Below, piece by piece: positions 23,154 to 39,885 of a DNA stretch of 64,000 bases. The notes beneath the pieces are model-generated. The model was not told where the DNA came from and did no database searches. It saw only the letters and a list, made by a program, of their open reading frames with translations. Source of the stretch: Patescibacteria group bacterium (GTDB lineage Bacteria > Patescibacteriota > Patescibacteriia > JAXHNJ01); the NCBI GenBank assembly GCA_034520665.1, contig JAXHNJ010000001.1, positions 194,579 through 258,578 on the forward strand, in the 5' to 3' direction. The position numbers and the translations under genes were made by a program. The number at the start of each line of letters is the position of its first letter. Position 1 is the first letter of the stretch.

Positions 23154-23735
23154 ATGACAAAGTTTATTTTCCATGGTGGGGAAACAAAAGTAAAAAATGT
23201 TCATAACCAAAATTATTTTAACGAAATAGTCAAGGGCTTAAAATCACCGGTAAAAGGGCTGGAAATTCCTTTTGCCAGACAAAGAGATAAATGGCAAAGT
23301 GGAGTTTTACGTGATAAAAAAAAGTTCCAGAGAAATCTTAAAGATAATAAAAAAGTTGAATTAGATTTAGCTAGTGAAAAATCTTCAATTCTACGTCAGC
23401 AAATTAAAAAAGCCGAGGTGGTTTTTATTATTGGCGGCTTGGAGATGAAGTGTTTAAAAGAAAATCTGAAAAAAATAAAAGATTTTAAGCAATTAATTAA
23501 AGGAAAAGTAGTGGCTGGTTCATCAGCTGGAGCTTATGTTTTAAGTCAGTATTATTATACTCATGGCCGAGCCAGGGTAGAGGAAGGCCTGGGAATTTTG
23601 CCAGTAAAAACAATAGCTCACTATGAAAAAGAAAAAGATAAAGGTAATCTAAAAAAATTATCGGAAAAAAACGGCCAATTAAAAATTATCAAAATACCAG
23701 AAACACAATATGTGGTTATAAATAAAGTATTATGA
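23154..23735 (+). CDS. peptidase S51 (dipeptidase E / cyanophycinase-like) family protein
   Basis: VVFIIGG... and VVAGSSAGAYVLSQ match the S51 G-x-S-A-G-A nucleophile region. Confidence 0.5.
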   Translation: MTKFIFHGGETKVKNVHNQNYFNEIVKGLKSPVKGLEIPFARQRDKWQSGVLRDKKKFQRNLKDNKKVELDLASEKSSILRQQIKKAEVVFIIGGLEMKCLKENLKKIKDFKQLIKGKVVAGSSAGAYVLSQYYYTHGRARVEEGLGILPVKTIAHYEKEKDKGNLKKLSEKNGQLKIIKIPETQYVVINKVL

Positions 23736-24511: not shown

Positions 24512-25725
24512 GAAAAGAATTTTTTATAAAAAAACCGCCTTCGTATGGACTACGGCGGTCAAGTAAAAAAAGTCAGAGAATTCCCTGTGTTTTGTATTCT
24601 AAAGATAATAAAATAGATCCTAAGATACCGACTGTGATTTATTGCCACGGCTTTACCGGACACAAAGAAGAGCACTGGTATCCCAGGTTTTTTTCTTTGT
24701 TTCCTAAAAAGGACTATCAATTAGTGGCTTTTGATATGTACGCTCATGGCCAGAGTCAGGAGAAGTTTATTGATTTTACTTTATCTAAAGCCTTGTCTGA
24801 CTATAAAAGGGTTTATAATTACGTGGCCAACCAAGGCGTCAAAAGAATAGCTATAGCCGGGCATTCTCTGGGCGGTGCAGCCAGTATTTTAGTGGCTAAT
24901 GATTGGGATATTCATTGTTTAATCTTGCTTTCGCCGGTGACTGACCGTTTTTATTTTGAAAGGAATTTATTAAACACTAAAAAGAAAAAAAAATTTCTTA
25001 ATAAAATGAGTTTTTTTAAGTATACTGATTCAGTCGGTTTGGTTTTTAAGGTCGGGGACAAATTTTTTAAGGATTTTTTAAAACATAGAATAAGAAGAAA
25101 AGCTGCTAGAATAAAAAAGCCAATTCTATTAATTCACGCGGAAAAAGATAATTCAGTGCCTTTAAAAGAGGGTAAAGAATTGAATAAAACCTTTGATTTT
25201 GATATTACAGATTTTAAAATAATTAAAGGAGCGGATCATGGTTTTAAAGCGGCTAAATACCACAATCAGGTGATAAAACACTTTTTTAGGTGGACAGACA
25301 GATATCTTAAAAAGAGAATTGATGAGGTAGTGACCGTATTTATTAAAAGAGAGGACGGACGAATTTTACTTTTAAAAAGAAGCCAGAAATTGGGCACTTA
25401 TCAGGGTTTATGGTTTGGGGTTGGTGGTTATGTGGATGACCAAGAATCGCCAAGAAAGGCTGTTTTCCGGGAAATTAAAGAAGAGCTTAACTTAAATAAA
25501 GATAAAATTAAAATAATAAAAAAAGCCGCACCTTATCGATTTGATGATAAAAAGTATGATAAGGACTGGCGTATTCATACCTTTCTTTGTCAGGCCAAAT
25601 CAGGTAAAATAAAAACAGATTGGGAAGCTGATGAATACAAATGGGTCCAGCCAAAAGATATTCTAAAATATAAAACAGTGTCAATTACTAAAAAAGGATT
25701 AAAACAAGTTGGATTAATTAAATGA
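24508..25725 (+). CDS. alpha/beta hydrolase - NUDIX hydrolase fusion protein
   Basis: N-terminal domain has HGFTGH...IAGHSLGGAAS (GxSxG). C-terminal domain has GGYVDDQESPRKAVFREIKEELNL (Nudix box GX5EX7REUXEEXGU). Confidence 0.65.
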   Translation: MRKEFFIKKPPSYGLRRSSKKSQRIPCVLYSKDNKIDPKIPTVIYCHGFTGHKEEHWYPRFFSLFPKKDYQLVAFDMYAHGQSQEKFIDFTLSKALSDYKRVYNYVANQGVKRIAIAGHSLGGAASILVANDWDIHCLILLSPVTDRFYFERNLLNTKKKKKFLNKMSFFKYTDSVGLVFKVGDKFFKDFLKHRIRRKAARIKKPILLIHAEKDNSVPLKEGKELNKTFDFDITDFKIIKGADHGFKAAKYHNQVIKHFFRWTDRYLKKRIDEVVTVFIKREDGRILLLKRSQKLGTYQGLWFGVGGYVDDQESPRKAVFREIKEELNLNKDKIKIIKKAAPYRFDDKKYDKDWRIHTFLCQAKSGKIKTDWEADEYKWVQPKDILKYKTVSITKKGLKQVGLIK

Positions 25726-26135
25726 ATTTAATTATCAACACAGCCAATAGGAATAAAATAATCGTGGCTATTGGTGATAATAAAAATATTATTAAAGAAA
25801 GTTTAGAAACTAGTTTTCATGAATCAGAAAAACTTATTCCATTAATTAAAAAAGTTTTAAAAAAAGCGAAAAAGCAATTAAAGAAGATTAAAAAAATAAT
25901 TGTAGTCACTGGACCAGGGCCTTTTACTTCTTTGCGTATTGGCATCGGAGTGGCTAATGCTCTGGCTTTGAGTTTAAATATTGCAGTAGTTGGATTTAAA
26001 AAAGATGAATTTAAGAGTATCAAGGATTTGATCAAAAAGTCGGAAAACAAAAAATTAAAGAAAAATAATTTTGTTAAACCTTTTTATGATAAAAAACCGA
26101 ATATTACTAAACCGAAAAAACCATGGTTGAAATAA
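25722..26135 (+). CDS. tsaB: tRNA threonylcarbamoyladenosine biosynthesis protein TsaB (short YeaZ-like form)
   Basis: VVTGPGPFTSLRIGIGVANALALSLNIAVVGF matches the YeaZ/TsaB N-terminal signature. Confidence 0.6.
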   Translation: MNLIINTANRNKIIVAIGDNKNIIKESLETSFHESEKLIPLIKKVLKKAKKQLKKIKKIIVVTGPGPFTSLRIGIGVANALALSLNIAVVGFKKDEFKSIKDLIKKSENKKLKKNNFVKPFYDKKPNITKPKKPWLK

Positions 26136-26740
26136 AACCCTTTATTTTAGGACCCTTGCAGAATAATTGTTTTGTAATAAATGATAAGAACAAAAAAGCA
26201 GCGATTATTGACCCAGGCTATCCCGAGGAAGAGTTAATATTTTATCTTAAAGATAATCAACTGGAGGTTAAATATATTTTGGTTACTCACGCTCATTTTG
26301 ATCATGTTTCATTTGTGCCGGAAATCAAAGAAACTACCGGAGCTAAAATTGCCATGGCTGCTAAAGAAATACCCTTGATTAAAGGCTCATATGAATGGGG
26401 CGGTTCAGGCATGGGTTATGAAGTGGATAATTTTAAGCCGGATGAATATTTAGAAGATGGTGATATTATAAAAGTGGGCTTAATGATTTTTAAAGTTATT
26501 TCAACACCAGGGCATTCGCCGGGTGGGGTTTCTTTTTATTTAACTAAAGAAAAGATTTTATTTTCCGGTGACACCTTGTTTGCTGGGACAGTTGGGAGGA
26601 CAGATCTGCCAGGCTCCAGTGAAAAAGTTCTCTGGCAGGGTATAAAAAAGAAAATTTTTACTCTACCGAAAGAGACCAGAATATTACCCGGACACGGACC
26701 CGAGACTAGTGTTGGGCAGGAAAAAGAATTACAGGGGTAA
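26123..26740 (+). CDS. MBL-fold metallo-hydrolase
   Basis: VTHAHFDH (HxHxDH) ... GHSPGG ... GDTLFAG. Confidence 0.75.
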   Translation: MVEIKPFILGPLQNNCFVINDKNKKAAIIDPGYPEEELIFYLKDNQLEVKYILVTHAHFDHVSFVPEIKETTGAKIAMAAKEIPLIKGSYEWGGSGMGYEVDNFKPDEYLEDGDIIKVGLMIFKVISTPGHSPGGVSFYLTKEKILFSGDTLFAGTVGRTDLPGSSEKVLWQGIKKKIFTLPKETRILPGHGPETSVGQEKELQG

Positions 26741-27144
26741 TTATTAGGTTCTTTCTGTGGCCAGAATATTTAAGAAACAAGAGACAAGAAACAAGTAACA
26801 AAAAAATTCCAATTATCAATTTTTCAAACTTTAATAATTAAAACCTATTTGATAATTGAAACTTGAAATTTTATTATTGTTCGTATTATTGTTTCTTGTT
26901 TTTTTGTATCTTGAATAAAATTCTCAGACCCCAAATGCTAAAAGGCTATTGTTAGTAATTTTTTTTGCTTAGGAATATAAGATCTTTTTTTTAAAAAAAA
27001 TGTAATGTTTGAAAGGGGTAACTGGGGTTTTATTAAAATAAGAAAATATAAAAATATAATATAGCCCAGGCTTTTTTGGTCTGCGCTTTTTAATTTTACT
27101 TTAAAACAGAAGTTTTCTAATAATAACTACTTGCTTACACCCCT

Positions 27145-27275
27145 CACCTTTATAAAAGTGGGGGATTGACATATATGTGGAAAAGTATTGTGGTTGACAA
27201 ATAAACTATTGTGGGGTAAAATGGAAATGAGAGGTGAAAAGTGGATAAATGTGGGGATAAGTAATCATTTCTGTG
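27145..27275 (+). promoter_or_regulatory. mraZ/dcw promoter region with direct GTGGR repeats (candidate MraZ operator)
   Basis: At least seven GTGG(R) repeats at about 10-nt phasing (gtgggggattgacatatatgtggaaaagtattgtggttgacaaataaactattgtggggtaaaatgg...gtggataaatgtggggataag...ctgtggataag). Embedded TTGACA-17-TAAAAT promoter. Confidence 0.45.
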
Positions 27276-27340
27276 GATAAGCCTTAGCGAACAACACTTT
27301 TCACTTAAATTATTAAAACTTTATTTTTTCCACAAATAAA

Positions 27341-27772
27341 ATGTTTATTGGCGAATATTATCATTCAACTGATCAAAAAGGCCGTCTGGCCATTCCCAAA
27401 AAATTCCGGAGTGATTTATCTAAGGGAGCAGTAGTGACCAGGGGATTGGACAAGTGTCTTTTTATATATACAAAAAAAGAGTGGCAAGCTTTAGCTGATA
27501 AGTTAGCTTCTTTACCTATATCTAAAGCTAACACTCGGGCCTTTGCTCGTTTAATGCTGGCCGGAGCTATGGAAGTGGGAGTGGATAAGCAGGGGCGAGT
27601 GCTTTTACCAGATTACTTAAGAAAATACGCCGGCATAAAAAAGCAGGTGGTAGTAGCCGGTCTCTATAATCGCATTGAAGTTTGGGATAAGTTAGCCTGG
27701 AATAAATATAAAACCAATACAGAAAAACAATCCAGCGATATCGCCGAGGCTTTAGAAGGATTAGGCGTTTAA
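27341..27772 (+). CDS. mraZ: transcriptional regulator MraZ
   Basis: MFIGEYYHSTDQKGRLAIPKKFR is the canonical MraZ N-terminus. First gene of the dcw cluster. Confidence 0.9.
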   Translation: MFIGEYYHSTDQKGRLAIPKKFRSDLSKGAVVTRGLDKCLFIYTKKEWQALADKLASLPISKANTRAFARLMLAGAMEVGVDKQGRVLLPDYLRKYAGIKKQVVVAGLYNRIEVWDKLAWNKYKTNTEKQSSDIAEALEGLGV

Positions 27773-27801
27773 AATACTTTTAAATTAAATTATTTCATTT
27801 T

Positions 27802-28764
27802 GTGCATATACCGGTTTTAAAAAACGAGGTTATAAGATACCTTGATTTAAAATCAGGTGATAATGTCATTGATTTAACAGTCGGTGGCGGGGGGCACGCG
27901 CGGCATATTTTGGCTAGAATAGCTCCGAAAGGAAAGCTGATTGGTTTGGACTGGGATAAAAAAGCCCTGAAAATAGCCAGGGAGAACCTGAAAAAATACA
28001 AAAAAAGAATTAACTTAATCCAGGCCAATTATAAACAAATAAAAAAAATAAAAAATGAACAGTTTAATCTACTTACAATTAATGCTATTTTACTCGACCT
28101 TGGTTTCTCATCAATTACACTCGAGGATAAATCTAGAGGATATTCTTTTCAAACTGATGGGCCACTAGATATGCGCTATAATCCGGCCGAAACCGAAAAA
28201 ACAGCCGCCGGAATATTAAACCATTACTCTCAAAGAAAATTATCTGAGGTGTTCAAAAAATTTGGTGAGGAAAAGTTAGCTGTTCCTATAGCCAGAGAAA
28301 TTGTAAAAAAAAGAAAAAAGAAAAAGTTTAAAACAACAAAAAATTTAGTACAGGCAATAATTAATACCTACAAAGATAAATATAATATAAATAAAAAAGA
28401 ACCTTTTATAAAAAGAAAAGATAAAATACATCCGGCTACTAAGGTTTTTCAAGCTCTGCGCCTTGAAGTTAATGACGAGTTGGATAATCTTAAAAAAGCT
28501 CTACCCCAAACTTTAGAAATTTTGGAAAAAGGAGGTAGACTGGGCGTAATTTCTTTTCATTCACTGGAAGACCGAATAGTTAAAAACTTTTTTAAAAAAG
28601 AGGCAAAAAAATGTATTTGCCCGCCGGAATTTCCGGTTTGTCGCTGTGGCCATGAAAAAAGCCTAAAGATTATAACTAAAAAGCCAGTTAGAGCTTCTGA
28701 AGAAGAAATCAAGAAAAACCCTAAAAGCCGCAGTGCTAAATTAAGGATAGCTGAAAAAATATAG
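27802..28764 (+). CDS. rsmH: 16S rRNA (cytosine1402-N4)-methyltransferase RsmH (MraW)
   Basis: HIPVLKNEVIRYL...DLTVGGGGHARHIL...LLDLGFSS...FHSLEDRIVK motifs. Confidence 0.9.
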   Translation: MHIPVLKNEVIRYLDLKSGDNVIDLTVGGGGHARHILARIAPKGKLIGLDWDKKALKIARENLKKYKKRINLIQANYKQIKKIKNEQFNLLTINAILLDLGFSSITLEDKSRGYSFQTDGPLDMRYNPAETEKTAAGILNHYSQRKLSEVFKKFGEEKLAVPIAREIVKKRKKKKFKTTKNLVQAIINTYKDKYNINKKEPFIKRKDKIHPATKVFQALRLEVNDELDNLKKALPQTLEILEKGGRLGVISFHSLEDRIVKNFFKKEAKKCICPPEFPVCRCGHEKSLKIITKKPVRASEEEIKKNPKSRSAKLRIAEKI

Positions 28765-28791
28765 AAAAAATAAATAAAGAGAAAAATAAAA

Positions 28792-29154
28792 ATGACAAAA
28801 TTTTCCCAGAAATTCCAAAGTCAGAGAAGATCTCGTCTGGCTAAACCGAGCTTTTTAAGTAAGCTAAAAATCAGCCGCCAAAAGCTGAGTGTGGCTTTAT
28901 TTTTATGTTTGATTATTACTGGCTTGGCCTATCTGGCAGTGATTAATAATGTTTCTATCCGAGGCTTTGAAATAAAAGAACTAGAAAAAAGAGTAGGGGA
29001 TTTAAAAGAAGAAAATAAAAATCTGGAAATGAAAACAGCTCAGCTGCAATCTATGGAGGTTATTGCCCAGGCTTCAAAAGGCTTAGACTTAGAGCTGGCA
29101 GAAAAAGTGGAGTATCTGGAAGTGAAAGCTCCCTTTGTGGTTTTGAAAGATTAA
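28792..29154 (+). CDS. FtsL-like cell-division protein (single TM plus coiled coil)
   Basis: 120 aa, one TM (VALFLCLIITGLAYLAVI) followed by a coiled-coil segment. Sits between rsmH and ftsI. Confidence 0.5.
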   Translation: MTKFSQKFQSQRRSRLAKPSFLSKLKISRQKLSVALFLCLIITGLAYLAVINNVSIRGFEIKELEKRVGDLKEENKNLEMKTAQLQSMEVIAQASKGLDLELAEKVEYLEVKAPFVVLKD

Positions 29155-29207
29155 CTTGTTTTTAAAGAATATTTCCGGTAAACTAAAATTTAATATTTTA
29201 ATTTTTT

Positions 29208-30974
29208 ATGGTCTATCGGAATAAGCGAAAAAAAATAAAAAGAGGCAAAAGAATAAAGTACGACCGTATAAATTTTTTAGCGGTGATTGTTTTTATTTTT
29301 GCCTTTTTTTTGATTTTACAACTTTTTAATATACAGGTTTTGCAGCATCCTTTTTATGATGCTTTAGCTAAAGGACAACATAGCCTTTATGAAAAACTTT
29401 TGCCGGAGAGAGGCAGTATTTTTGCTAAAAATTATTTAAAAGATGGAGAAATCTTTCCTTTAGCTACTAATAAAAAAGTAAACTTTATTTACGCCGTGCC
29501 TGAGAAAATCAAGAGCCCCCAAAAAGCAGCGGAAAAATTAGGCCAGTTACTTGATTTGGAGGAGGAGGTAATTTTAGAAAGGCTTTCTAAAAAAGAGGAT
29601 TTATTTGAACCGATTAAACATTTTGTCTCTGATGAAAAATGGGAAGAAGTAAAATCTCTGGAAATTGAGGGTATTGAGGCCCGGGAGGAAACCCAAAGAT
29701 ATTATCCGGAAAATGAGACTGCTTCTCATGTTTTAGGTTATGTTGGCCAGAGAGAGGATTCTGATCAGCCGGTGGGACAATATGGTATTGAAGGTTATTT
29801 TAATCAGGAACTGGCTGGCCAGCAGGGTTACTTAGACACCGAAAAAGACGCGGGTGGCCGCTGGATTACGGTTGGCGGTATGGATATAAAAGAAGCCGTG
29901 GATGGAGATGATCTGGTTTTAACTATTGATCAGACGGTTCAATACACAGCCTGCCAAAAATTAGAAAAATGGGTAAAAAAGCACAAAGCTGATTCCGGGA
30001 CTATGATTATTATGGAGCCTCAAACAGGCAAAATTTTGGCTATGTGCGGATATCCTGACTTTGACCCTAATAATTATAATCAAGTGGAGAATATTGAAGT
30101 TTATAAAAATCCGGCTATTTACAATACCTACGAACCCGGATCAGTTTTTAAAGCCTTTACCATGGCTAGTGCTTTGGATTTGGGCAAGGTGACTCCAGAA
30201 ACCACTTACACCGATACCGGCGAAGAAAAAATCGGGCCTTACACCATTAAAAATTCTGATTTAAAAGCTCATGGTGAGCAGACTATGACTCAAGTTTTGG
30301 AAGAATCTTTAAACACCGGAGCTATTTATGCTATGCGCCAGGTGGGAGAAAAGCTTTTTTATCAATACGTTAAAGATTTTGGTTTTGGTGAGAAAACGGG
30401 CCTAAAAATGGACACTGAACTGGGCGGCAGTATTAATAATTTAAAAAAATACAAGGAAATTTACGCGGCTACCGCTTCTTTTGGTCAGGGTATTACGGTT
30501 ACTCCCTTGCAAATAGTTAATGCTTTTTCGGCTATTGCCAATAAGGGCAAATTAATGAAGCCTTATATAGTTGATGAAATCAGAAAACCGGACGGTTCGA
30601 TAATTAAAAGTCAGCCTGAAGAGATAAGGCAGGTTATTGACCCGAAAACAGCCACTACTTTATCAGCTATGTTGGTTAACGTAGTGGAAAAAGGTCATGG
30701 TAAACGGGCTGGGGTGGATGGTTATTTTGTAGCTGGCAAAACAGGAACATCTCAGGTACCAAAAAAAAACGGGGTCGGTTATGAAGAACATCATACTATT
30801 GGCTCTTTTGCTGGTTTTGCTCCAGCTTCAGACCCAAAATTTGCTATGTTGGTTAAGGTAGACCGGCCGCGTACAGTAGAATGGGCTGCCAGTACAGCGG
30901 CTCCGCTTTTTGGCGAGATGTCAAAATTTTTACTTAATTATTTTTCTATTCCCCCGAGTCGGGATATTGAATAA
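29208..30974 (+). CDS. ftsI: peptidoglycan D,D-transpeptidase FtsI (class B penicillin-binding protein)
   Basis: N-terminal TM. Motifs SVFK (SxxK), SLN (SxN), KTGT. Conserved dcw position. Confidence 0.85.
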   Translation: MVYRNKRKKIKRGKRIKYDRINFLAVIVFIFAFFLILQLFNIQVLQHPFYDALAKGQHSLYEKLLPERGSIFAKNYLKDGEIFPLATNKKVNFIYAVPEKIKSPQKAAEKLGQLLDLEEEVILERLSKKEDLFEPIKHFVSDEKWEEVKSLEIEGIEAREETQRYYPENETASHVLGYVGQREDSDQPVGQYGIEGYFNQELAGQQGYLDTEKDAGGRWITVGGMDIKEAVDGDDLVLTIDQTVQYTACQKLEKWVKKHKADSGTMIIMEPQTGKILAMCGYPDFDPNNYNQVENIEVYKNPAIYNTYEPGSVFKAFTMASALDLGKVTPETTYTDTGEEKIGPYTIKNSDLKAHGEQTMTQVLEESLNTGAIYAMRQVGEKLFYQYVKDFGFGEKTGLKMDTELGGSINNLKKYKEIYAATASFGQGITVTPLQIVNAFSAIANKGKLMKPYIVDEIRKPDGSIIKSQPEEIRQVIDPKTATTLSAMLVNVVEKGHGKRAGVDGYFVAGKTGTSQVPKKNGVGYEEHHTIGSFAGFAPASDPKFAMLVKVDRPRTVEWAASTAAPLFGEMSKFLLNYFSIPPSRDIE

Positions 30975-30976
30975 AA

Positions 30977-32350
30977 ATGAAAAGATTACTAAAAAAAATA
31001 TTAGAAAAAAAACTGCGTTTTTTTTCAAAGCGTATTTTAAATAAATATGAGCCGGATGTTATTGGAGTTACTGGCTCAGTCGGTAAAACTTCAACTAAAG
31101 AGGCTATTTTTACCGTCTTATCGGGCAAGTTTTCCGTGCGACAGAGCCAGGGCAATTACAATAATGAAATAGGAGTACCTTTAACCATTATTGGTTATCA
31201 TTCTCCGGGCCGGTCAGTATTTGGCTGGCTGGCTGTATTTTTTAAAGCCTTTAAATTATTGCTTTGGCATCACCCTTATCCTAAAGTACTAGTTTTAGAA
31301 ATGGCGGCTGATAAACCGGGTGATATTGAATATTTAACCCAGTTTATACCGTTAAATGTAGGAATAGTTACGGCGGTGGCTCCGGTTCACACTGAGTTTT
31401 TTAAAACTTTAAAAAATATTGCCAAAGAAAAATCTTCCATTATTAAAAATTTACCGCCAGACGGTTTTGCTCTAATCAACGCTGATGACGAGTTGGTTTT
31501 ACCAATGAAAGAAAAAACTAAAGCTAGTGTTTCTACCTATGGTTTGTCAAAAGAAGCCGAGGTACAGGCTTCGGAAATAAACCTAAGCTATGGGCAGGAG
31601 CAGAAGATAGATGGTTTAAAAAGAAGCGAGATAAAGGGTTTAAGTTTTAAAATAAAATATAACGGCTCCACGGCTCCTTTCTTTTTACCCGGAGTAGTCG
31701 GCGAGCACCAAGTCTATACCGCTTTAGTAGCGGCCGCTGTTAGTTTAGCCTATGGTCTTAATCTGGTGACTATAGCTAACCGTTTAAAAGAATATCACTC
31801 TCCTCCCGGACGGATGAATTTATTGCCGGGCATTAAAGGCACTTTAATTATTGACGACAGTTATAATTCTTCGCCCAAGGCCTCTCTGGCTGCTTTAGAA
31901 GTTTTGGGTAAGATAAATTTGGGCCAGGATATGCCTCGGGCCGTTAAACCCAAAGCTATGAAAAAGTTGCCTCGTGGCAGTAAAAGGTTTTTAAAGTTTG
32001 CTGCCTTGGGAGATATGGCTGAACTGGGCGAATTTACTCAAGAGGGACACGCTATGGTTGGTCAAAAAGTAGTCGGGGTGGCTGATATTTTAATCACGGT
32101 GGGTCAAAAGGCTAAGATTATAGCCAAGGAAGCTTTAAAAAGAGGTATGCATGAGATGCAGATTTTTTCTTTTGACTATGCTGACCAAGCCGCGCGATTT
32201 CTTCAGGACAGAATTCATAAAGGCGATATTATTTTAATTAAAGGCTCGCAGGTTTCCCGTATGGAAAAAGTAGTCAAAGAAATTATGGCCCAGCCTATGA
32301 AAGCTGATGAGTTATTGGTTCGTCAGGGGGAAAGCTGGCAGGAGGAATAA
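30977..32350 (+). CDS. murF: UDP-N-acetylmuramoyl-tripeptide--D-alanyl-D-alanine ligase MurF
   Basis: GVTGSVGKTSTKE P-loop, Mur-ligase middle and C-terminal domains. Follows ftsI. Confidence 0.8.
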   Translation: MKRLLKKILEKKLRFFSKRILNKYEPDVIGVTGSVGKTSTKEAIFTVLSGKFSVRQSQGNYNNEIGVPLTIIGYHSPGRSVFGWLAVFFKAFKLLLWHHPYPKVLVLEMAADKPGDIEYLTQFIPLNVGIVTAVAPVHTEFFKTLKNIAKEKSSIIKNLPPDGFALINADDELVLPMKEKTKASVSTYGLSKEAEVQASEINLSYGQEQKIDGLKRSEIKGLSFKIKYNGSTAPFFLPGVVGEHQVYTALVAAAVSLAYGLNLVTIANRLKEYHSPPGRMNLLPGIKGTLIIDDSYNSSPKASLAALEVLGKINLGQDMPRAVKPKAMKKLPRGSKRFLKFAALGDMAELGEFTQEGHAMVGQKVVGVADILITVGQKAKIIAKEALKRGMHEMQIFSFDYADQAARFLQDRIHKGDIILIKGSQVSRMEKVVKEIMAQPMKADELLVRQGESWQEE

Positions 32351-32382
32351 AGTTCATATAAAATTTATTTAATTTATCAAAA

Positions 32383-32405
32383 GCGGGTAATCCCCGGTTT
32401 TTTAA
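32383..32405 (+). terminator. putative intrinsic terminator after murF
   Basis: gcgggtaatccccgg stem followed by tttttt. Confidence 0.45.
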
Positions 32406-32473
32406 GTTTGATTAATTAATCAAAAATAGCTATAATTAAGGCATAATTTTATACGGTTCAAAACTTTCACAAT

Positions 32474-32532
32474 TTCGTATAATAAACAAATTTGAGGTGA
32501 TTATACGAAATCAATTTGTATAATAATGAGTT
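32474..32532 (+). repeat. 59-bp palindromic element, copy 1 of 3 (also 50821..50879 and 60415..60473)
   Basis: ttcgtataat-aaacaaatttgaggtg-attatacgaa (10-bp inverted repeat around a 16-nt spacer) followed by atcaatt-tgtataataatgagtt (a third half-site). Confidence 0.7.
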
Positions 32533-32641
32533 AAGTCGAATTTTTTCTTCTGCTAAAAATTTAAATCTCTAATATATATTTCCCACGCAAAGAAGCGCGC
32601 TAACTACAAACTTAATTGAAGTTTTAGAAACCTTTATAAGA

Positions 32642-33238
32642 TTGAGTAAATTAAACTATTATATGAACAAAACATTATATATTTTAATTGGAGTAATCTT
32701 AATTGTAGCTTCTTTCTATATAGGCTATACAATTAAAAGTCCTACATCTGCATCACAAGAAATACAAAATCTTAAAAATCAAATAACAAATTTACAGCAA
32801 CAAAATAGCCAATTGCAATCTAATGTAAAAGAGCTGCAAAACCAACTTCAAAATGAAAATGGCTCCGAGAATTCTCAAGATTCAAATACTGGAGCAAAGG
32901 GAAACATTGAATATGGTAAGGGGGATTGTATGCCTTGTGTCTGTGCAGATGAAGATTGTACTGGATGCCCAGAAAGAACTTATTCTGATTTTAGTGGTGA
33001 TATTTATTTTATTCTAAAAAGTGATTTAGATACTTTGGGAGATGGTGATTTTGATAACTTAATTGAATCTAGTGCTAAAACTCTGGTTACTAATGGGAAT
33101 TATGAAATCAGTTTGGCTCCTGGAGAATATTTCGTTATGCCAAGAGATGTTTATCAGTATGATAAAAATTTCATAAATATTTCTTCAGGGAATATGGTGG
33201 AGAAAGACTTCAAATTCTTTAAATGTACTTCATATTAA
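32642..33238 (+). CDS. cassette ORF: N-terminally anchored coiled-coil/Cys-containing protein, unknown function
   Basis: 198 aa. TM near N-terminus, Q/N-rich coiled coil, CxCxxxxCxxC cluster. Confidence 0.45.
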   Translation: MSKLNYYMNKTLYILIGVILIVASFYIGYTIKSPTSASQEIQNLKNQITNLQQQNSQLQSNVKELQNQLQNENGSENSQDSNTGAKGNIEYGKGDCMPCVCADEDCTGCPERTYSDFSGDIYFILKSDLDTLGDGDFDNLIESSAKTLVTNGNYEISLAPGEYFVMPRDVYQYDKNFINISSGNMVEKDFKFFKCTSY

Positions 33239-33356
33239 ATTAGAGCGCGCTCCCCACCCCAAGATAAGAGATTTAAATTTTTTAAACGCAGAAGAAAAAA
33301 CTCCTTCGCTTTGCTCGGTGACGCCTTGCAGGCTCTCGACATAAATGCCTCACACG

Positions 33357-33442
33357 ACTTAACAGCGATTATCTGGAATTTTCCTGCGAAAAATCCCAAA
33401 ATTCTGCTACGCAGAACTTCAGATAATCGCGATATATTAGAC
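33357..33442 (+). repeat. attC-like site
   Basis: R''-like ACTTAAC, L'' GCGATTATCTG ... L' CAGATAATCGC, R'-like ATTAGAC. Confidence 0.5.
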
Positions 33443-33495
33443 GAAATGCGAGCGAGCTGATTGATTTATAAATAGAATATGCTTTAAAATAATTT

Positions 33496-34041
33496 ATGAT
33501 GAAAATTATTATGGATTCAAAAATTAAGATCTTAATGGGATTTTTGATTATTGGAATTATTCTAATTGGTGTATTGTGGATTTTGAGTAACCGACCATCG
33601 GAAAATGTCCCCAATGAAGAAACATACAAAAAAGGCGAAAGTATAACATTTAAGATAGATGATAATGTTCAAATTTGCACCGATGATTTGCCTTTCTCTA
33701 TAATTAAATTTAATGAAGAGTCGGTAAAATTAAAACATTCCTGTATAGGAGAAATAGGTTCGGGTTTTGATCAATATTGTGAGAATGGGAAAATGGTTTT
33801 AAAACCAGTTTATCAACTTTGTGATTTCCTAGAGAAATGGTGTCGGGGTTGTAACGATGCACTTACTTGTCGGAATAAATTTATTCATGAAACATTTGTG
33901 TGGGATCAAAAGGAATATGTTGAAACAACTGAAGAATGTGAAGGCAAAATCATTCATAGAGAATTAAAAAAGCAGGTTCCAGAGGGTAAGTATCAAATTA
34001 TTGTAGACGGAAAGATTATCAAAGAATTTACAATAAAATAA
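33496..34041 (+). CDS. cassette ORF: N-terminally anchored Cys-rich protein, unknown function
   Basis: 181 aa, one N-terminal TM, 10 Cys. Confidence 0.45.
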   Translation: MMKIIMDSKIKILMGFLIIGIILIGVLWILSNRPSENVPNEETYKKGESITFKIDDNVQICTDDLPFSIIKFNEESVKLKHSCIGEIGSGFDQYCENGKMVLKPVYQLCDFLEKWCRGCNDALTCRNKFIHETFVWDQKEYVETTEECEGKIIHRELKKQVPEGKYQIIVDGKIIKEFTIK

Positions 34042-34095
34042 AATTTATGACGGCTCGCTCGCACTTAAAACCCTTCGGATTTTGCCCTTCGGGTC

Positions 34096-34172
34096 GTCTA
34101 ACAAGGGCTATACGGCTACGGCTTTCAGCTTTCGCCCAAATTTCGACTTCGTCAAAACTTCGTATAGCCCAA
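34096..34172 (+). repeat. attC-like site
   Basis: GTCTAAC-aa-GGGCTATACG ... CGTATAGCCC-aatac-GTTATAT: R''/L''...L'/R' organisation with a perfect 10-bp L''/L' pair. Confidence 0.55.
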
Positions 34173-34249
34173 TACGTTATATGAAATTGCGGGGCTATAA
34201 CAAATTTTTGCAAAAGTTTTATTAACCTATACAAAATAACTACAATATT

Positions 34250-34705
34250 ATGAAGAAGAAAATCCTAATCACAACAATCACCATTTTATTAGTAGCTTCT
34301 ATTACAATTATATATTTCTTTTTTGCCAATCAAAATCAATTACCAATATCGAAAAATGTGTCTCGGAATGTTTTAGAGATATGCAAAGAAAAAAGTAAAA
34401 TAGAGTGTCATGGCAATTGCATGGATGGTTTTGCAGAAATTGGATATTTTGATTCGCGAAAATATAGTAAACAAGACTTTTTAGATACTCCCGAGGAACT
34501 CTACAAAACATATGGGGAAAAAAGAGAAATGATCCTTGCTTCTCATTACCAAAGCAGCTGTGATCCTTGTGGAAACAAATTTGAGCTTAATAAAAATGGT
34601 GTTTTTCAAGAGGTTTCTTGTGAAGAATTTTTTGAAACAATTGAAAATATTAATAAATCCTGCAATGGTTGTGTGAACACAATATATTTACAAATTAGTG
34701 GATAG
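34250..34705 (+). CDS. cassette ORF: N-terminally anchored Cys-rich protein, unknown function
   Basis: 151 aa, N-terminal TM, 11 Cys. Confidence 0.45.
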   Translation: MKKKILITTITILLVASITIIYFFFANQNQLPISKNVSRNVLEICKEKSKIECHGNCMDGFAEIGYFDSRKYSKQDFLDTPEELYKTYGEKREMILASHYQSSCDPCGNKFELNKNGVFQEVSCEEFFETIENINKSCNGCVNTIYLQISG

Positions 34706-34784
34706 TAAAAATCCTGGCCCGGCAACTCTCCCTCACATCTTCGCTGTTCGGTCGGCACGCTGCACTCTCGCTATCGCTCGGCTC

Positions 34785-34874
34785 ACTTAACACGGCTTAT
34801 GCGGAAACCTCGTTGCACTTCGGTTTCCCAAATGCTCACTACGTTCGCACTTCGCATAAGCCGATACGTTAGGC
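34785..34874 (+). repeat. attC-like site
   Basis: ACTTAAC-ac-GGCTTATGCG ... CGCATAAGCC-gatac-GTTAGGC: a perfect 10-bp L''/L' pair. R' is GTTAGGC. Confidence 0.55.
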
Positions 34875-34919
34875 GATGTTGTGCTGATTTTATCCAGTAT
34901 ATAACCTAAATAAAGAAAC

Positions 34920-35504
34920 ATGAATAAATTTATCCTAGTCATTATTATCATCATTATTGGAGTGGGTATTTGGTGGTGGCAACAATCTGCCAATACTGTC
35001 ATTACGAATACTGGCTGGCTGACATATGAGAATAGAGATTACAATTTTGAACTGCAATATCCAAATGACTGGACCCCTCAAGAGTCGTCTTATGACGATA
35101 TAAATACTGAAGAAAACAAATGGGAACCCAAATATTGGGAAGATTGGAAGGTGGTAAAAAAGATATCTTTCAACACTAGTGTTGAATTTTTTTATCTTGA
35201 TGTTTATATCATGGATCAGAGTATTGAAAGTGTGCTAGACAAGGTAGGAAAAAATCATAGCAATTCGCCCTTTCAGCCTTCCTTAGAGGAAATAAAAATT
35301 AACGCCAATCAAGCTTATGTTACATCTGTTTGCGATTTGGGTTGTTGTTCTAAAGATGTTTATATTGCCAAAGATGAAAATACTACTATACAAATTGCTA
35401 GGGGAGCTGTTTGTAGCGTAGGATCAGAAGAAAATATACAAAAAGCTGAAAACAATACAAATACTTTTGAGCAAATTCTGACTACTTTTAAATTTGCGAA
35501 ATAA
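34920..35504 (+). CDS. cassette ORF: N-terminally anchored protein, unknown function
   Basis: 194 aa, N-terminal TM, W-rich. Confidence 0.45.
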   Translation: MNKFILVIIIIIIGVGIWWWQQSANTVITNTGWLTYENRDYNFELQYPNDWTPQESSYDDINTEENKWEPKYWEDWKVVKKISFNTSVEFFYLDVYIMDQSIESVLDKVGKNHSNSPFQPSLEEIKINANQAYVTSVCDLGCCSKDVYIAKDENTTIQIARGAVCSVGSEENIQKAENNTNTFEQILTTFKFAK

Positions 35505-35520
35505 AAATCAGCACAATATC

Positions 35521-35583
35521 GCCTAACAGCGTATATATGTTATTCCACTTCGCTCCACGGCGCATGATACGCAAACGTTAGAT
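35521..35583 (+). repeat. attC-like site (short)
   Basis: GCCTAAC-AGCGTATATATG ... CATGATACGCaaac-GTTAGAT. The upstream 16 nt (aaatcagcacaatatc) are the reverse complement of 34875-34890, the 5' end of this cassette. Confidence 0.55.
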
Positions 35584-35652
35584 GAAATAATTAAATTCTT
35601 TTGGCTATCGCCAAAAATTATTGGAACAAATTTTTATTTTATTTTTTAAGAT

Positions 35653-36711
35653 ATGAACAAGAATCAAATTATAACATTATCAGGATATAGCATCATTCAT
35701 GGAATTATAGATTTGTGCTGTGCGATAGTTGTTTTTAGTACATTGCTATATCATGGTTATGACGCAAGTGATGTTTTTATTTTTGTTGTGGCTTACAATA
35801 TAATTGCTTTTGGATTACAAGCACCTTTTGGATTGTTAGTGGATAAGTATCAAGTTCCTAAAGAAAGCGCATTTATTGGTTGTACTTTGGTTTTGTCTTC
35901 TTTTTTCCTATTCAACATTCCAGCTTTAGTGATAATACTATCTGGACTAGGGAATGCTTTTTTTCATGTTGGCGGAGGAAGCATTAGTTTGAATTTCAAT
36001 CCACAAAAAGCAACCGCTCCTGGAATTTTTGTTGCGCCGGGTGCGTTAGGACTGACAATTGGAATTTTGATTGGCAAAAGTGGCTCATTTATTTTTTGGC
36101 CTTTTGCATTACTACTTATTTCTTCATGTCTATTTATTATTTTTAGTAAAATTCCAGAGATTAATTATCAAAAAATATCAACTAAACCTAAAATAAATTA
36201 TTTTGAATTGGTAATACTATTGCTCTTGCTATCCGTATCAATAAGAGCATTATATGGTCTGACCGCTGTTTTCGCCTGGAAAGCAAATATTGCCTTGCTG
36301 TTTTCTCTAACTATTGCAGTAGTCGCCGGAAAAGCTTTAGGTGGTTTTTTGGCTGATAAATTTGGTTGGATAAAAACTGCTATTTTTGCTCTAATAATTT
36401 CCGCTCCCTTGCTTTCTTTTTTTCAAGGATCACCAATACTTGCAATAATAGGTGCATTCTTATTTCAAATTACTATGCCGATAACTTTAACAGCATTATC
36501 AAATATGCTTCCAGGCAGATCAGCTACCGCTTTTGGTTTAACAGTTTTGGCCTTAATAATCGGTGCCATTCCCGTTTATTTGGGGGCTAAGTCATTTTTA
36601 AGTACTCAATGGATTGCATTAATAATAATCATAATTTCAGCAAGTTCGCTACTTATTAGTTTTAAATTTCTGTATAATTATTTTAAAGGTCAACTCAAAA
36701 TAAATTTATAA
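35653..36711 (+). CDS. cassette ORF: polytopic membrane protein (MFS-transporter-like, ~10-12 TM)
   Basis: 352 aa, almost entirely hydrophobic helices with short loops. Confidence 0.4.
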   Translation: MNKNQIITLSGYSIIHGIIDLCCAIVVFSTLLYHGYDASDVFIFVVAYNIIAFGLQAPFGLLVDKYQVPKESAFIGCTLVLSSFFLFNIPALVIILSGLGNAFFHVGGGSISLNFNPQKATAPGIFVAPGALGLTIGILIGKSGSFIFWPFALLLISSCLFIIFSKIPEINYQKISTKPKINYFELVILLLLLSVSIRALYGLTAVFAWKANIALLFSLTIAVVAGKALGGFLADKFGWIKTAIFALIISAPLLSFFQGSPILAIIGAFLFQITMPITLTALSNMLPGRSATAFGLTVLALIIGAIPVYLGAKSFLSTQWIALIIIIISASSLLISFKFLYNYFKGQLKINL

Positions 36712-36727
36712 TTTAATCATAATAACT

Positions 36728-37009
36728 ATGAAAAAATTAAAAACAGTTCTAACAACCTTTTTCGTCTTTAGTATTTTCTCATTAATGTCCACTCAAAAAG
36801 CCTTAGCAGACTTAGTGCCGATAAATTATGGAGATGATACACCTTACGGACCAAACGTTAATTCAAACCCAGAGCCAAACGTTAATTCAAGCCCAGAGCC
36901 AAAAACATTTATTGATTTAATTGAGCCGCAACACATTATTATTGGCGGAGCGGTATTGGCTGTAGTAATAATATCTTTTGTAGTACTTTTTAAAATGAGA
37001 AAAAAATGA
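36728..37009 (+). CDS. cassette ORF: small secreted protein with C-terminal TM anchor and basic tail
   Basis: Signal peptide, PEPNVNS repeats, C-terminal hydrophobic segment plus KMRKK. Confidence 0.4.
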   Translation: MKKLKTVLTTFFVFSIFSLMSTQKALADLVPINYGDDTPYGPNVNSNPEPNVNSSPEPKTFIDLIEPQHIIIGGAVLAVVIISFVVLFKMRKK

Positions 37010-37341
37010 GATTTGAATACTATTCTTTAGCTCTAATTTTCACTCTAGTAATTGAGTTATCTGTAGCTTATATTTTAGGATTTAGGAATAAAAAAAGCAT
37101 TGTCACGATTATTTCTGCCAATCTTATAACACACCCTTTGCTTTGTTACTTTTTATGGATAAATTCATTTATTTTCATTATTCCTGTTAACTATTTCTCA
37201 ATTGTTGTTTTAGAAATATTGGTTATATTATTAGAATCAGCATTACTATTCTTCGCATTGAAACAACAATATTTAGATATGCTAAAAGTATCATTTGTCA
37301 TAAACACAACCTCTTTCCTTGTTGGATTATTATTATTTTAA
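37006..37341 (+). CDS. cassette ORF: small membrane protein (3 TM)
   Basis: 111 aa, hydrophobic. Start overlaps the upstream stop. Confidence 0.4.
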   Translation: MRFEYYSLALIFTLVIELSVAYILGFRNKKSIVTIISANLITHPLLCYFLWINSFIFIIPVNYFSIVVLEILVILLESALLFFALKQQYLDMLKVSFVINTTSFLVGLLLF

Positions 37342-37422
37342 AATAATTTTTAAATAATAGAAAAATAAAAATAAATTTGCCCAATAATAACTCGCTTACG
37401 CTCGTTGAATTTAATTACATTA

Positions 37423-37516
37423 TATTAACAGCATGTATGAGGCTACGGCTTTTTACAAAAGTCACCACCCAAATTGCTCTCTGCGGTCGCAATTTCTCAA
37501 ATCCCTGACGTTAGGT
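37423..37516 (+). repeat. attC-like site
   Basis: TATTAAC ... GTTAGGT. The internal block ggctacggctttttacaaaagtcaccaccca is homologous to the element at 39942..40035. Confidence 0.45.
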
Positions 37517-37632
37517 GAAATAGCCAGAAATCTTTAATTATTTTTAGAATTTCTTTGGCAATTTAATAGGTTGAACATAGCTTGTGATATAATATTATAA
37601 ATCTTAAAATATAAATTTTTAATCAAAAAAAT

Positions 37633-38535
37633 ATGGAATCATTAGAAAAATTTAGTAAAATTGAAAAAGAAAAACCAGAATATACATCAAAAATAAAGTT
37701 GTCATTCTTTCGCCATGCGGAAAAAGAAAAGGATAAATCAAAATCTGATTTAAAAATTAGACTAACAGAAGAGGGTAGAAAAAATAGTAAAAAGAAAAGT
37801 GATACTCTAAATATCAGGCAATCAGTCGTCTTTGGTAGTCCCCGTGAAAGAGCACAGGAAACAGCTTCTTTTAGAATGTCTGGAAATCAGGAAGAAATAA
37901 CAGGGGAAGAAACTTTTGAAGAATTAAAAGATAAATTAAATAAGGGATTAAAAGTTGGATCAAAAATTAGCGTAGATAAAAGATTAGATTCTGATTTGGA
38001 CATGGAAAGTGATTTTGGTAAAATCTCTTTAGAAAATTTTAAAAAGGGTCAATATCTAAAATTTTTAGTTGAGGAAAGCGATAGTTTGGCTAAAGAAAAA
38101 GATGATACTAAAGGTTTTACTTATTTGAAAAGTGCTTCAAATGTAGCAAAAATAATTGAAAAATATTTAAGCATTTCTAAACGATGGGATAAACTGGTGC
38201 AGGACCCACAAAAAAACTATGATGATACCTTAGAAAGATATTTTGGCACCCACTTAAGTGTTGGCGAGTGTTTTTTGGCTAAAGCAATAGAAGAGACAGA
38301 AGGTGAAGAAAAAAGAGATGAGTTTGTCAAAGCTCTCAATAATCAGGGATTTGATTTTAATGAGGGTTTTGAAATAGAAATTTTAAACAGCGAAAACGAA
38401 CCATCCGTTCATATATCTTTCAAAAAAGAACTTAGCGACAAAGAAGAAGGCAAAGAAGAAGTAAAAAACGTTTTTGAGTTTGATCAAAATCTATCCATAG
38501 ATACTATAAAAAAAATAGCGGAAAGTAATCAATAA
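37633..38535 (+). CDS. cassette ORF: acidic protein, possible histidine-phosphatase-superfamily (RHAE motif)
   Basis: SFFRHAEKE...LTEEG resembles the RHG/RHAE catalytic motif of the PGAM-like family. A similar motif occurs in the 61168..62223 ORF. Confidence 0.3.
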   Translation: MESLEKFSKIEKEKPEYTSKIKLSFFRHAEKEKDKSKSDLKIRLTEEGRKNSKKKSDTLNIRQSVVFGSPRERAQETASFRMSGNQEEITGEETFEELKDKLNKGLKVGSKISVDKRLDSDLDMESDFGKISLENFKKGQYLKFLVEESDSLAKEKDDTKGFTYLKSASNVAKIIEKYLSISKRWDKLVQDPQKNYDDTLERYFGTHLSVGECFLAKAIEETEGEEKRDEFVKALNNQGFDFNEGFEIEILNSENEPSVHISFKKELSDKEEGKEEVKNVFEFDQNLSIDTIKKIAESNQ

Positions 38536-38578
38536 ATTGCCAAAAAAATAATAAAGAAAAGAAATTTCTGTCTACGTC

Positions 38579-38674
38579 ACATAACAGCGTGTATCTGGTT
38601 CGCCCCTCGGCTCGCAAATTTCCCAAATTTTCTCCGCTACGCTCCGAAAACTTCTCATAAGCCCGATGTTATAC
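38579..38674 (+). repeat. attC-like site
   Basis: ACATAAC-AGCGTGTATCTGG ... GTTATAC. The upstream gaaatttctgtctacgtcac is the reverse complement of the sequence following R' at 37517-37535. Confidence 0.5.
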
Positions 38675-38736
38675 GAAATAACTAAATTCTCTTCTGCTAT
38701 CGTCGAAAAATTATTGGAACAAATTTATTTTTATTT

Positions 38737-39885
38737 ATGAATAATATTGAAAAAAAAATTCCTCTTGAAAATAAGGCTGAAACTATGAGAATACCTGAAA
38801 TTAATATTAGAGAAGAAAAGGGCGCAACGCTTTTATCAATTTTATTACGAGGCTACAATCAAGATTTTGGTAGCCACGACCATGAATTATCTCAAAGAGT
38901 AGATGAATATTTTGAACAAAATCCTCTTGACGAAAAATCAATCAAATTATTAAAAGAAATTAAAGCTCTAGAAGACGACGGCGTTGATGGGGAAACATTA
39001 TTCAACATTGTTTTAACACACGACGATGAAGACAGGGTTGAATCTTTGCTTGAATTTATTTCTAAACATAAAGAGTGCGTAAAAAAACCTGAGAAACTAA
39101 GAAATAATCTTCTGAAAGCAATCAATGATCTAGAAAATAAATTACCAGAAGCATTAAAACAAGATTTTGACAAAGCCACATCTGAAGATATCAAAATACG
39201 AGAGCAAAACATAGAAGATTCCAAACAAAGAATAAAAAAATTGATTGATTTTTTTAGGCCACAAACTAATACAACAAAAACTAAAGAAGTAGTCTTGCTC
39301 CCTACCGATTTTTTAATGTCTGAAAAATCGGGAGTCGCTTTTAATTTTGGGGATAATCTTTATATTTCTTCACATGTCGATAATCCGCATAATTTAGAGC
39401 ATGAATTCTTGCATTGCATCATTAACCCGATCGTTGATAAACTAGATAAAAAATTATCAGATGAACAAAAACAAAAAATAAGCAATCTCGCGAGTGATAA
39501 ACTAAAAGTTGAGCAAGGCTATGGGAAAGAATATTACAGTTTACTTTGCGAAGAATTCATCAGAACTTACAATGATGTTTTTCAACACGGGAAGCAACCG
39601 ATAGTTTATAATGATTTTGTTCAAAAAATTGAAAGCTTAGATGAAGAACAATTTAATTCTTTACTTTCGAAAAAAGAGAGTCTAAAAAATCGTTGCGCCC
39701 AATTGCAGATAAACACATTTGAAGATTTTAAAAACAAAAGTCAAGAATATTTTGACGCTTTTGAAAAAAATGATTTACGAGAAATCATATTTAAATTCTA
39801 CCAGGATTTCACAAAAGAAAAAGAAAAAAATCCAAATTTAGATTTTGAGGAGTTTGTTTTAAAGGAATTTAATAATAGAATATAA
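38737..39885 (+). CDS. cassette ORF: hypothetical protein with HExxH motif (possible zinc metallopeptidase)
   Basis: 382 aa. Single HEFLH motif (LEHEFLHCIIN). No TM. Confidence 0.3.
   Translation: MNNIEKKIPLENKAETMRIPEINIREEKGATLLSILLRGYNQDFGSHDHELSQRVDEYFEQNPLDEKSIKLLKEIKALEDDGVDGETLFNIVLTHDDEDRVESLLEFISKHKECVKKPEKLRNNLLKAINDLENKLPEALKQDFDKATSEDIKIREQNIEDSKQRIKKLIDFFRPQTNTTKTKEVVLLPTDFLMSEKSGVAFNFGDNLYISSHVDNPHNLEHEFLHCIINPIVDKLDKKLSDEQKQKISNLASDKLKVEQGYGKEYYSLLCEEFIRTYNDVFQHGKQPIVYNDFVQKIESLDEEQFNSLLSKKESLKNRCAQLQINTFEDFKNKSQEYFDAFEKNDLREIIFKFYQDFTKEKEKNPNLDFEEFVLKEFNNRI

Follow-up and report, generated by a model that had tools for sequence, protein, structure and literature searches.

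We analysed a window of 64,000 nucleotides (64 kb) from a Patescibacteria group bacterium (assembly GCA_034520665.1, contig JAXHNJ010000001.1), with a focus on the DNA that follows the cell-wall gene murF. The source is a genome of the Patescibacteria, or Candidate Phyla Radiation (CPR), and the G+C content of the window is low (0.25-0.40). We find three separate arrays of integron-type gene cassettes, where an earlier note on this DNA had seen one, and a copy of the same attI-like element stands at the head of each. These are probably orphan attI-headed arrays of an integron variant of the Patescibacteria, whose short integrase acts in trans or has been lost. A broader proposal, on which we are close to evenly divided and lean slightly towards doubt, is that of a phylum-wide integron lineage with an IntI/XerA-like integrase of 270 amino acids (aa) that lacks the I2 domain, a triple-box attI, and landing pads served in trans. 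The short integrase would then be a surviving Xer-IntI intermediate, or would have lost I2 secondarily.

The element at 32474 extends over 57 bp to G 32530 and consists of three 10-bp boxes, 5 nt, and then G/TT (the slash marks the predicted crossover). The general order of the boxes is TTCGTATAAT / ATTATACGAA / TTCGTATAAT. The three copies are:

32474-32483, + strand: copy 1, box 1, TTCGTATAAT
32500-32509, + strand: copy 1, box 2, ATTATACGAA, 16 nt after box 1
32515-32524, + strand: copy 1, box 3, TTTGTATAAT, 5 nt after box 2
G at 32530, + strand: copy 1, reached through the spacer AATGA; the crossover is predicted between 32530 and 32531
50821-50877, + strand: copy 2, boxes at 50821-30, 50847-56 and 50862-71, AACGA, G 50877; heads array 2
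60415 to G 60471, + strand: copy 3, boxes at 60415-24, 60441-50 and 60456-65, AACGA-G/TT; heads array 3

A hidden Markov model of the element (nhmmer) detected exactly these three full copies in the window, all on the + strand, with E = 4.5e-15 (32474), 5.7e-19 (50821) and 4.1e-17 (60415). In an alignment of nine loci, the TTCG.ATAAT boxes and AACGAGTT are invariant. The boxes resemble the R''/L' boxes of the local attC sites (TCG-YMY-AAC), and box 2 resembles R' (GTTATACGAAAT was found as an R' at 38668). Box 3 (TTCGTATAA), TAACGAG and the cassette's TTRNNCGAA together form a core of two inverted arms around a 7-bp centre (9-7-9).

The junction GTTAAGTCG (32530-32538), directly after copy 1, is complementary to the R'' CGACTTAAC of the first attC (ending at 33363). 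The element is the real junction. The first cassette starts there, and the R'' of its attC matches the cassette's first bases. At copy 2 the cassette ends, GTTGTGCGAAATTGTTCTAATTTTTT and AAAAAATTAGAACAACATCGCACAAC, match at 24 of 26 positions (50877-50902/51586-51611). The earlier note had stated that no attI was recognisable, while suggesting that a 59-bp palindromic element (32474-32532) could be an attI-like entry site. The junction matches and the related loci described below favour the suggestion over the statement: the element is of attI type. A second candidate site proposed there, the GCGCTAAC...GTTTTAG pair (32597-32627, + strand), did not hold up. This pair lies within the 5' untranslated part of cassette 1 and was rejected both as an attI and as a mini-attC, as it departs from both RYYYAAC and GTTRRRY, lacks L boxes, and folds no better than shuffled sequences (z = +0.40).

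Each box contains a perfect TATAAT, and box 1/box 2 and box 2/box 3 can form alternative hairpins (z = -2.5 and -3.2). These features could suggest that the element is a promoter/operator or an attenuator built of TATAAT-containing palindromes, and not a recombination site. We regard this as very improbable: there is no -35 sequence at the proper spacing, scans of the window yielded no Rfam match (and no tRNAs), and the genes downstream differ from copy to copy, whereas the G/TT junction and the cassette-specific match to R'' are constant. A regulatory role of box 1 and box 2 besides recombination may nevertheless exist.

Most intergenic regions from 33.2 kb on have the attC layout R'' (..YTAAC) - L'' ... 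L' - R' (GTTRRRY), and 12 of these sites can be aligned as one sequence family. RNAalifold alone gave just 7 L-stem pairs; the full R+L structure was drawn by hand and then tested. It has 75% of its cells paired (compared to 25-40% in slid controls), compensatory changes in 7 of 11 L-helix pairs, and a covariation score above that of 500/500 shuffles. In the bottom-strand folds of the sites a1, a2, a3 and b2 (z = -3.5 to -5), a bulge of 2-3 nt separates the R stem from the L stem. A covariance model trained on attCs of the window gave 14 matches, all on the + strand and between 33352 and 61084, with no attC in the first 33 kb and none on the - strand of the window.

The six variable bases after G/TT were scored at 15 junctions, anchored by hand. 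Cognate R'/R'' identity was 4.47/6 versus 3.22/6 for non-cognate pairs (permutation p = 1.2e-4). The cassettes are discrete units, and the bases after G/TT match the R'' of their own attC better than they match other R'' boxes. The match between cassette ends often reaches 20-26 nt (e.g., 34868-34891/35504-35527). The first cassette and its attC are:

32531-33436, + strand: cassette 1, with an open reading frame (ORF) at 32642-33238 for a membrane/coiled-coil protein; R'/R'' match 6/6 at the variable positions
33357-33442, + strand: attC a1 of cassette 1; bottom-strand fold z = -5.03; 65 bits with the covariance model, to whose training set it belonged

The R' of a1 is ATTAGAC, with G changed to A. 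Cassette 1 carries nested terminal inverted repeats (32541-32570/33267-33299), and AGCGCGCT palindromes (32593-32600 and 33244-33251) flank its ORF, inside two further inverted-repeat pairs. Terminal inverted repeats of 20-50 nt, extending beyond the 7-bp R boxes, occur in several cassettes and also in a related locus (L003, 4351-4410/4808-4866); therefore the attC of a circularised cassette would have a long base stem. Repeats of this length are believed to be unusual among classical integron cassettes. The GC-rich loop repeat CCCTCCAGAGGCGGGCAGGC of attC b2 recurs at 41843 and 55198. A 92-aa ORF at 52523-52801 is an artefact of attC b2 itself (52624-52742).

No integrase gene was found with the arrays. 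A Pfam scan of window ORFs of at least 80 aa, covering the + strand ORFs of the arrays and all upstream ORFs (short opposite-strand nested ORFs and the ORF of a 1568-aa surface protein, 3187-7893, were left out), identified no Phage_integrase domain, and a tblastn search of the window in all frames with two related recombinases gave a best E of 2.5. The absence of an integrase from the 64 kb, reported earlier, is therefore confirmed by both searches. Two candidates were rejected: the 333-aa ORF at 49140-50141 (same strand) is an asparaginase by Pfam, and a repeat (D1) that might have been left over from an integrase proved to be the 3' end of a gene for a 197-aa protein.

Of the parts of a complete integron, the window thus has imperfect palindromes (R''-L''...L'-R') that bound single-ORF cassettes, and attI-type sites with G/TT at all three array heads. 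An intI gene with the IntI-specific additional domain was not found in the window, and a recombinase gene adjoins the attI in related loci only. Having many attC sites (two suffice) and no integron-integrase within a few kb, the window falls under the definition of a cluster of attC sites lacking integron-integrases (CALIN). The arrays could then be ordinary CALINs, decayed attC clusters of classical integrons with a canonical IntI elsewhere in the genome; the element would be the attI of that IntI or a conserved attC, and the short recombinase a bystander Xer. The attC architecture, R''-L''-L'-R' with G/TT, is canonical, as this explanation expects. It also has in its favour that the I2 helix is needed for attC recombination in the IntIs studied (PMC7790495). 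The related loci, however, make this explanation unlikely.

A degenerate three-box pattern recovered one homolog of the element in species-representative genomes (L003, the single true homolog out of three matches) and two in metagenomes (L014 and L016). It also matched unrelated GC-rich sequences, and of six matches in a scan of viral contigs none (0/6) fitted the element model. In L003 and L016, a gene for a tyrosine recombinase of 270-273 aa starts 20-50 nt from box 1, divergent from the element; in L003 a cassette with a 50-nt end inverted repeat comes after the element, and then an attC. Starting from the recombinase, we examined four further independent loci (L023, L024/25, L026/27 and L034-41). 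In 6/6 independent loci (these four, L003 and L016), the element lies upstream of the recombinase gene, divergent from it and at 20-80 nt. The involvement of a non-canonical recombinase, one option in the earlier note, gains support from this pairing with a short IntI/XerA-like enzyme.

The element and the attC family are associated with the recombinase in six loci. The covariance model, trained on sites of the window alone, recognised attCs on the array side and on the expected strand with 86 bits in L026, 81 in L024, 61 in L003, 53 in L014, 45 in L034 and 42 in L023, and gave no match in L018, L019 or L021, relatives of the murF region discussed below. The exact intI-attI-cassette layout is present in 6/6 loci, with the same attC family beyond the element, a constant placement for which the bystander explanation would have to account. 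In addition, we saw no canonical IntI in the 8-20 kb examined at each of the six recombinase loci, and upstream the element is flanked by conserved genes of the chromosome instead of cassettes.

Several observations were made on these contigs. L014 has an orphan attI (2985-3050, - strand) with HIT and NUDIX cassettes and their attCs; its other neighbour is a divergent miaB. The L003 contig is filed as a metagenome-assembled genome (MAG) of an uncultured Gammaproteobacteria, and its recombinase and neighbours match Patescibacteria proteins; the label is probably a binning error. GC-rich triple-box sites, TTCGCATAAT ... ATTATGCGAAGCTTCGCATAAT, occur in other metagenome contigs (L005/L013, L007, L010 and L011), 0.3-2 kb from tyrosine recombinases that are about 28% identical to the Patescibacteria enzyme; this class may represent a wider recombinase-plus-site module.

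The best match of the recombinase in the PDB is VchIntIA (2a3v, E = 4.6e-45). The two proteins align in two stretches (residues 7-177 with 8-181, and 198-270 with 245-317), and the 63 VchIntIA residues in between (182-244) face only 20 in the recombinase, so that about 43 aa are missing. By sequence comparison, the gap is at the position of the IntI-specific additional (I2) domain. The enzyme aligns end to end with archaeal XerA (4a8e). Among NCBIfam models it scores 236 bits with XerA_Arch (NF040815, cut-off 220), 223 bits with the integron integrase model TIGR02249 (in two stretches and below the cut-off of 265), 191 bits with XerD and 189 bits with XerC. The sequence shows the catalytic residues R, K, HxxR, H and Y. 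The homologs recovered at E <= 1e-40 number 7148, with an identity of about 70% across the Patescibacteria. Many of them are on contigs of about 1 kb, and platforms of attI and recombinase are probably under-assembled in metagenomes.

The likeness to XerA, with NF040815 above its cut-off, and the conservation and abundance of the enzyme also suit a single housekeeping Xer recombinase, as in XerS/difSL, XerH/difH and XerA/dif. The element would then be a dif site, at which the cassettes have piled up in the manner of integrative mobile elements exploiting Xer (IMEX). Box 3 plus R' has the anatomy of a dif, two inverted recombinase-binding arms with a centre of 6-8 bp, and we take the boxes, TTCG(C/T)ATAAT, to resemble the XerC arm of dif. 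This explanation is nonetheless distinctly improbable. A dif is a single site per replicon at the terminus, whereas here three direct copies stand within 28 kb, which an active dif system would delete. Two related platforms are near the origin, not the terminus (about 6 kb from dnaA in L023, and beside parAB in L034). Every platform examined has attC hairpins and discrete cassettes, unlike IMEX elements.

We therefore return to the reading of the arrays as orphan attI-headed platforms of an integron variant, for which the following mechanism can be proposed. The three 10-bp boxes are predicted recombinase-binding sites of a double-stranded attI-type site, in which box 3, the 5-nt spacer and the cassette's G/TTRNNCGAA would make up a dif-like core, with box 1 and box 2 as accessory sites. 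Cassettes would enter by attI x attC recombination, with strand exchange at G/TT and an attC that reacts through its bottom strand, folded so as to leave a bulge of 2-3 nt. The presumed enzyme is the 270-aa IntI/XerA-type tyrosine recombinase without I2, which would bind the boxes. It may serve the three attI sites from outside the window, or may have been lost, leaving the arrays frozen. A TTGATT-17-TATAAT sequence (32408-32436) may drive expression of the cassettes of array 1.

One trace of such a loss is possible. The 12-nt sequence CATAATTTTATA (32442-32453, + strand), 21 nt upstream of the attI of array 1 (attI1), is identical, on the reverse strand, to the start codon and 5' untranslated region of the recombinase gene in L023 and in L024. 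It occurs once in the window (0.13 expected), and the homology ends at the ATG. From the sequence, it is a possible scar of a deleted integrase gene. The attI1 site has only the element in common with the platforms of the other two arrays (attI2 and attI3).

Several points weigh against this reading. The window is without any recombinase, so that it is other genomes that connect the arrays with the short enzyme. The size and conservation of the recombinase family (7148 matches) fit a housekeeping Xer role too. Single-strand attC recombination is held to depend on the I2 domain (PMC7790495 and PMC4792948), so the short enzyme, in which I2 is absent, may not carry out this reaction. Several attCs are degenerate, with fold z about 0, and three junctions (a7->a8, I3->c1 and a4->a5) match their cognates poorly at the six variable positions; the arrays may thus be inactive. 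A convincing cassette promoter (Pc) was not found at attI2 or attI3. The 12-nt scar was noticed post hoc.

Comparison with relatives that lack the array shows where array 1 is inserted. The features involved are:

32351-47071, + strand: array 1 insertion including attI1, with about 16 ORFs, degenerate at the 3' end
33357, 34096, 34785, 35521, 37423, 38579, 39942, 40731, 41640 and 46466, + strand: attC sites of array 1
47159-50743, + strand: genes for a GAF histidine kinase, an asparaginase (49140-50141) and a 197-aa protein (Pfam), in the same order as in relatives

Contigs with a MurF 77% (L019/L020), 69% (L018) and 63% (L021/L022) identical to that of the window all hold mraZ-rsmH-ftsL-ftsI-murF, and none has the element. 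In L019/L020 and L018, murF is followed by the GAF kinase, the asparaginase and the 197-aa ORF; L021/L022 has three additional genes between ftsI and murF, and two unannotated ORFs after murF where the other relatives have the kinase. In blastn alignments, L019 1-1861 corresponds to window 30477-32340 and L019 1901-2016 to window 47072-47198, and past these joins L019 runs on through the kinase, asparaginase and 197-aa genes (window 47.2-50.7 kb). Because L019 aligns on both sides, array 1 is a 14.7-kb insertion in the murF-kinase spacer, between the stop codon of murF and the terminator-promoter region of the kinase. That both joins fall in one ancestral spacer speaks against a chimeric assembly.

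The earlier note had read the array as an insertion within the division and cell wall (dcw) gene cluster that splits murF from mraY, and had proposed a comparison of synteny with relatives without the array. In many bacteria murF is followed by mraY, and the position right after murF is real, with the insertion starting at 32351 and the element at 32474. An insertion inside the operon is hardly credible all the same. None of the three relatives has mraY directly after murF, or anywhere within 10 kb of it, and no MraY-type domain was identified in any window ORF scanned. Judging from gene order, the genes that ancestrally came after murF are those for the kinase, the asparaginase and the 197-aa protein. 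This lineage already had no murF-mraY adjacency, and its dcw block ends at murF with or without the array.

Within array 1, at 41980-42050 and 42062-43210, a long AT-rich, operator-like palindrome (TATATGTTTATATACATT...AATGTATACAAACATATATA) precedes a Fic/DOC gene. Terminator-like repeats were found at 43233-43320 and 44528-44615.

The other two arrays follow the ancestral neighbours of murF:

50878 to about 57650, + strand: array 2, headed by attI copy 2
57668-57726, + strand: stray copy of the 3' end of the gene for the 197-aa protein, lacking an attI (blastn to L019 5282-5339, 88%; repeat family D1)
60297-60477, + strand: attI3 platform, an approximately 95% duplicate of the attI2 platform (repeat families D1 and D2)

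At attI2, the element lies behind a 77-nt spacer after the 197-aa gene. The attI3 platform consists of the last 42 nt of that gene, the 77-nt spacer and attI-like copy 3, and array 3 continues past the end of the window. The stray gene end at 57668-57726 is a trace of rearrangement. A 3.5-kb contig of an independent short-read assembly (L001, Logan SRR26473340) is 100% identical to window 60423-63923, and its breakpoints lie within attI3 and at an attC. In the segment that separates array 2 from attI3 (57786-60290), a 211-aa ORF overlaps a gene for an AbiEii-type nucleotidyltransferase toxin (Pfam, 67.5 bits). A strong TTGACA...TACAAT promoter-like site precedes this pair, and an ORF broken by stops and frameshifts (59747-60290) follows it.

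The genes and signals upstream of array 1 are:

27341-27772, + strand: mraZ (MraZ, Pfam)
27802-28764, + strand: rsmH (RsmH/MraW, Pfam)
between rsmH and ftsI, + strand: ftsL-like ORF, 120 aa
29208-30974, + strand: ftsI (class B penicillin-binding protein, Pfam)
30977-32350, + strand: murF (Mur ligase, 457 aa; Pfam Mur_ligase_M 106 bits, Mur_ligase_C 49 bits)
32371-32408, + strand: weak terminator-like hairpin and T-run after murF (fold -10.5 kcal/mol, z = -2.55)
32408-32436, + strand: promoter-like TTGATT-17-TATAAT, candidate Pc, consensus match 10/12, pointing into the array

Pfam thus agrees with the gene calls made earlier for this block, of which murF is the final gene. Homologs of its product in the Patescibacteria carry the name UDP-MurNAc-tripeptide--D-Ala-D-Ala ligase (D-Ala-D-Ala-adding enzyme). 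The closest matches come from MAGs of the Patescibacteria/CPR (best identity 77%; named Kerfeldbacteria and Buchananbacteria matches about 55%). From 22041 to 32350, every likely gene is on the + strand, as the earlier note's remark on the absence of opposite-strand genes for 10 kb implies. Its order of murF, terminator and cassette array also stands, with a terminator that is weak and was not called by a stricter consensus scan. No equivalent of the promoter at 32408-32436 is present upstream of attI copy 2. Further upstream, a heliorhodopsin gene (16502-17308, + strand; Pfam PF18761, 340 bits) adjoins a gene for a pyrimidine-dimer glycosylase.

What defines an integron is its integrase, with an extra domain believed to permit recombination of folded, single-stranded attC sites. 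The window and six related loci have typical attC arrays behind a conserved attI whose partner gene lacks that domain. If the short enzyme carries out the reaction, standard CALIN calls would miss integrons that are common in the CPR, and a natural protein would be at hand for testing the evolution from Xer to integron integrase. A genome could then also have more than one attI docking site for an enzyme acting in trans, and bacteria with very small genomes would have a route for gene acquisition. In practical terms, the array has put 14.7 kb of DNA between murF and the kinase gene, and does not disrupt a murF-mraY pair. In the literature, incompletely covered, we found nothing on integrons or attC arrays of the CPR/Patescibacteria, and no description of a natural IntI-like integrase in which the additional domain is missing, both of which are absence of evidence only; the survey made with IntegronFinder 2.0 (PMC9024848) does not list the Patescibacteria. 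The integron variant is thus apparently undescribed, on condition that activity of the predicted enzyme is confirmed.

Of the systems already described, sedentary chromosomal integrons (such as the superintegron of Vibrio cholerae, whose attCs are of the Vibrio cholerae repeat type) share the long one-directional arrays of small promoterless ORFs, the single attC family with R''-L''-L'-R' and a G/TT crossover, cassette starts that match their own attC, and an attI at the array head. The Patescibacteria arrays differ in that the integrase of the related loci lacks the IntI additional domain and none stands beside the three attI copies here, in having several attIs in one region, and in cassette-end inverted repeats that extend 20-50 nt past the 7-bp core.

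The class 1 attI1 site (an L+R simple site with the integrase-binding direct repeats DR1/DR2) presumably has four binding sites, as in the element. We also take its core to join an L-type box, through a short spacer, to the R box (GTTRRRY) of the first cassette, with accessory sites related to the core, as seen here. The element differs in its box sequence, TTCGTATAAT, in the inverted orientation of one accessory box and in a spacing fixed at 16-5-5. Unlike class-specific attI sites, it is conserved across distant genomes.

As in the single-recombinase systems XerS/difSL, XerH/difH and archaeal XerA/dif, a recombinase of about 270 aa is encoded beside a site with inverted arms and a 6-8-bp centre. 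Unlike in those systems, the element is multi-copy, is origin-proximal where this can be judged, and is always followed by attC-bounded cassettes. CALINs (Cury et al., 2016, PMC4889954; IntegronFinder 2.0, PMC9024848) are likewise attC clusters with no integrase nearby, and IntegronFinder would probably file these arrays among them. Each cluster here starts with a conserved attI-type site, however, and thus resembles a full platform minus the gene and not a stray fragment.

Archaeal integrons (Ghaly et al., 2022, PMC9668308) were also found outside the classical phyla and through MAGs, but archaeal IntIs keep the IntI-specific additional domain, which the Patescibacteria enzyme lacks. Closest in question is the work of Escudero et al. 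(2016, PMC4792948; 2020, PMC7790495), in which IntI is held to have gained single-strand attC recombination with the I2 helix, and which addresses the same step from a Xer-like enzyme to attC recombination through the gain of I2. The enzymes of those studies are laboratory variants of IntI1, whereas the Patescibacteria enzyme is natural, widespread, and without I2 yet beside attC sites.

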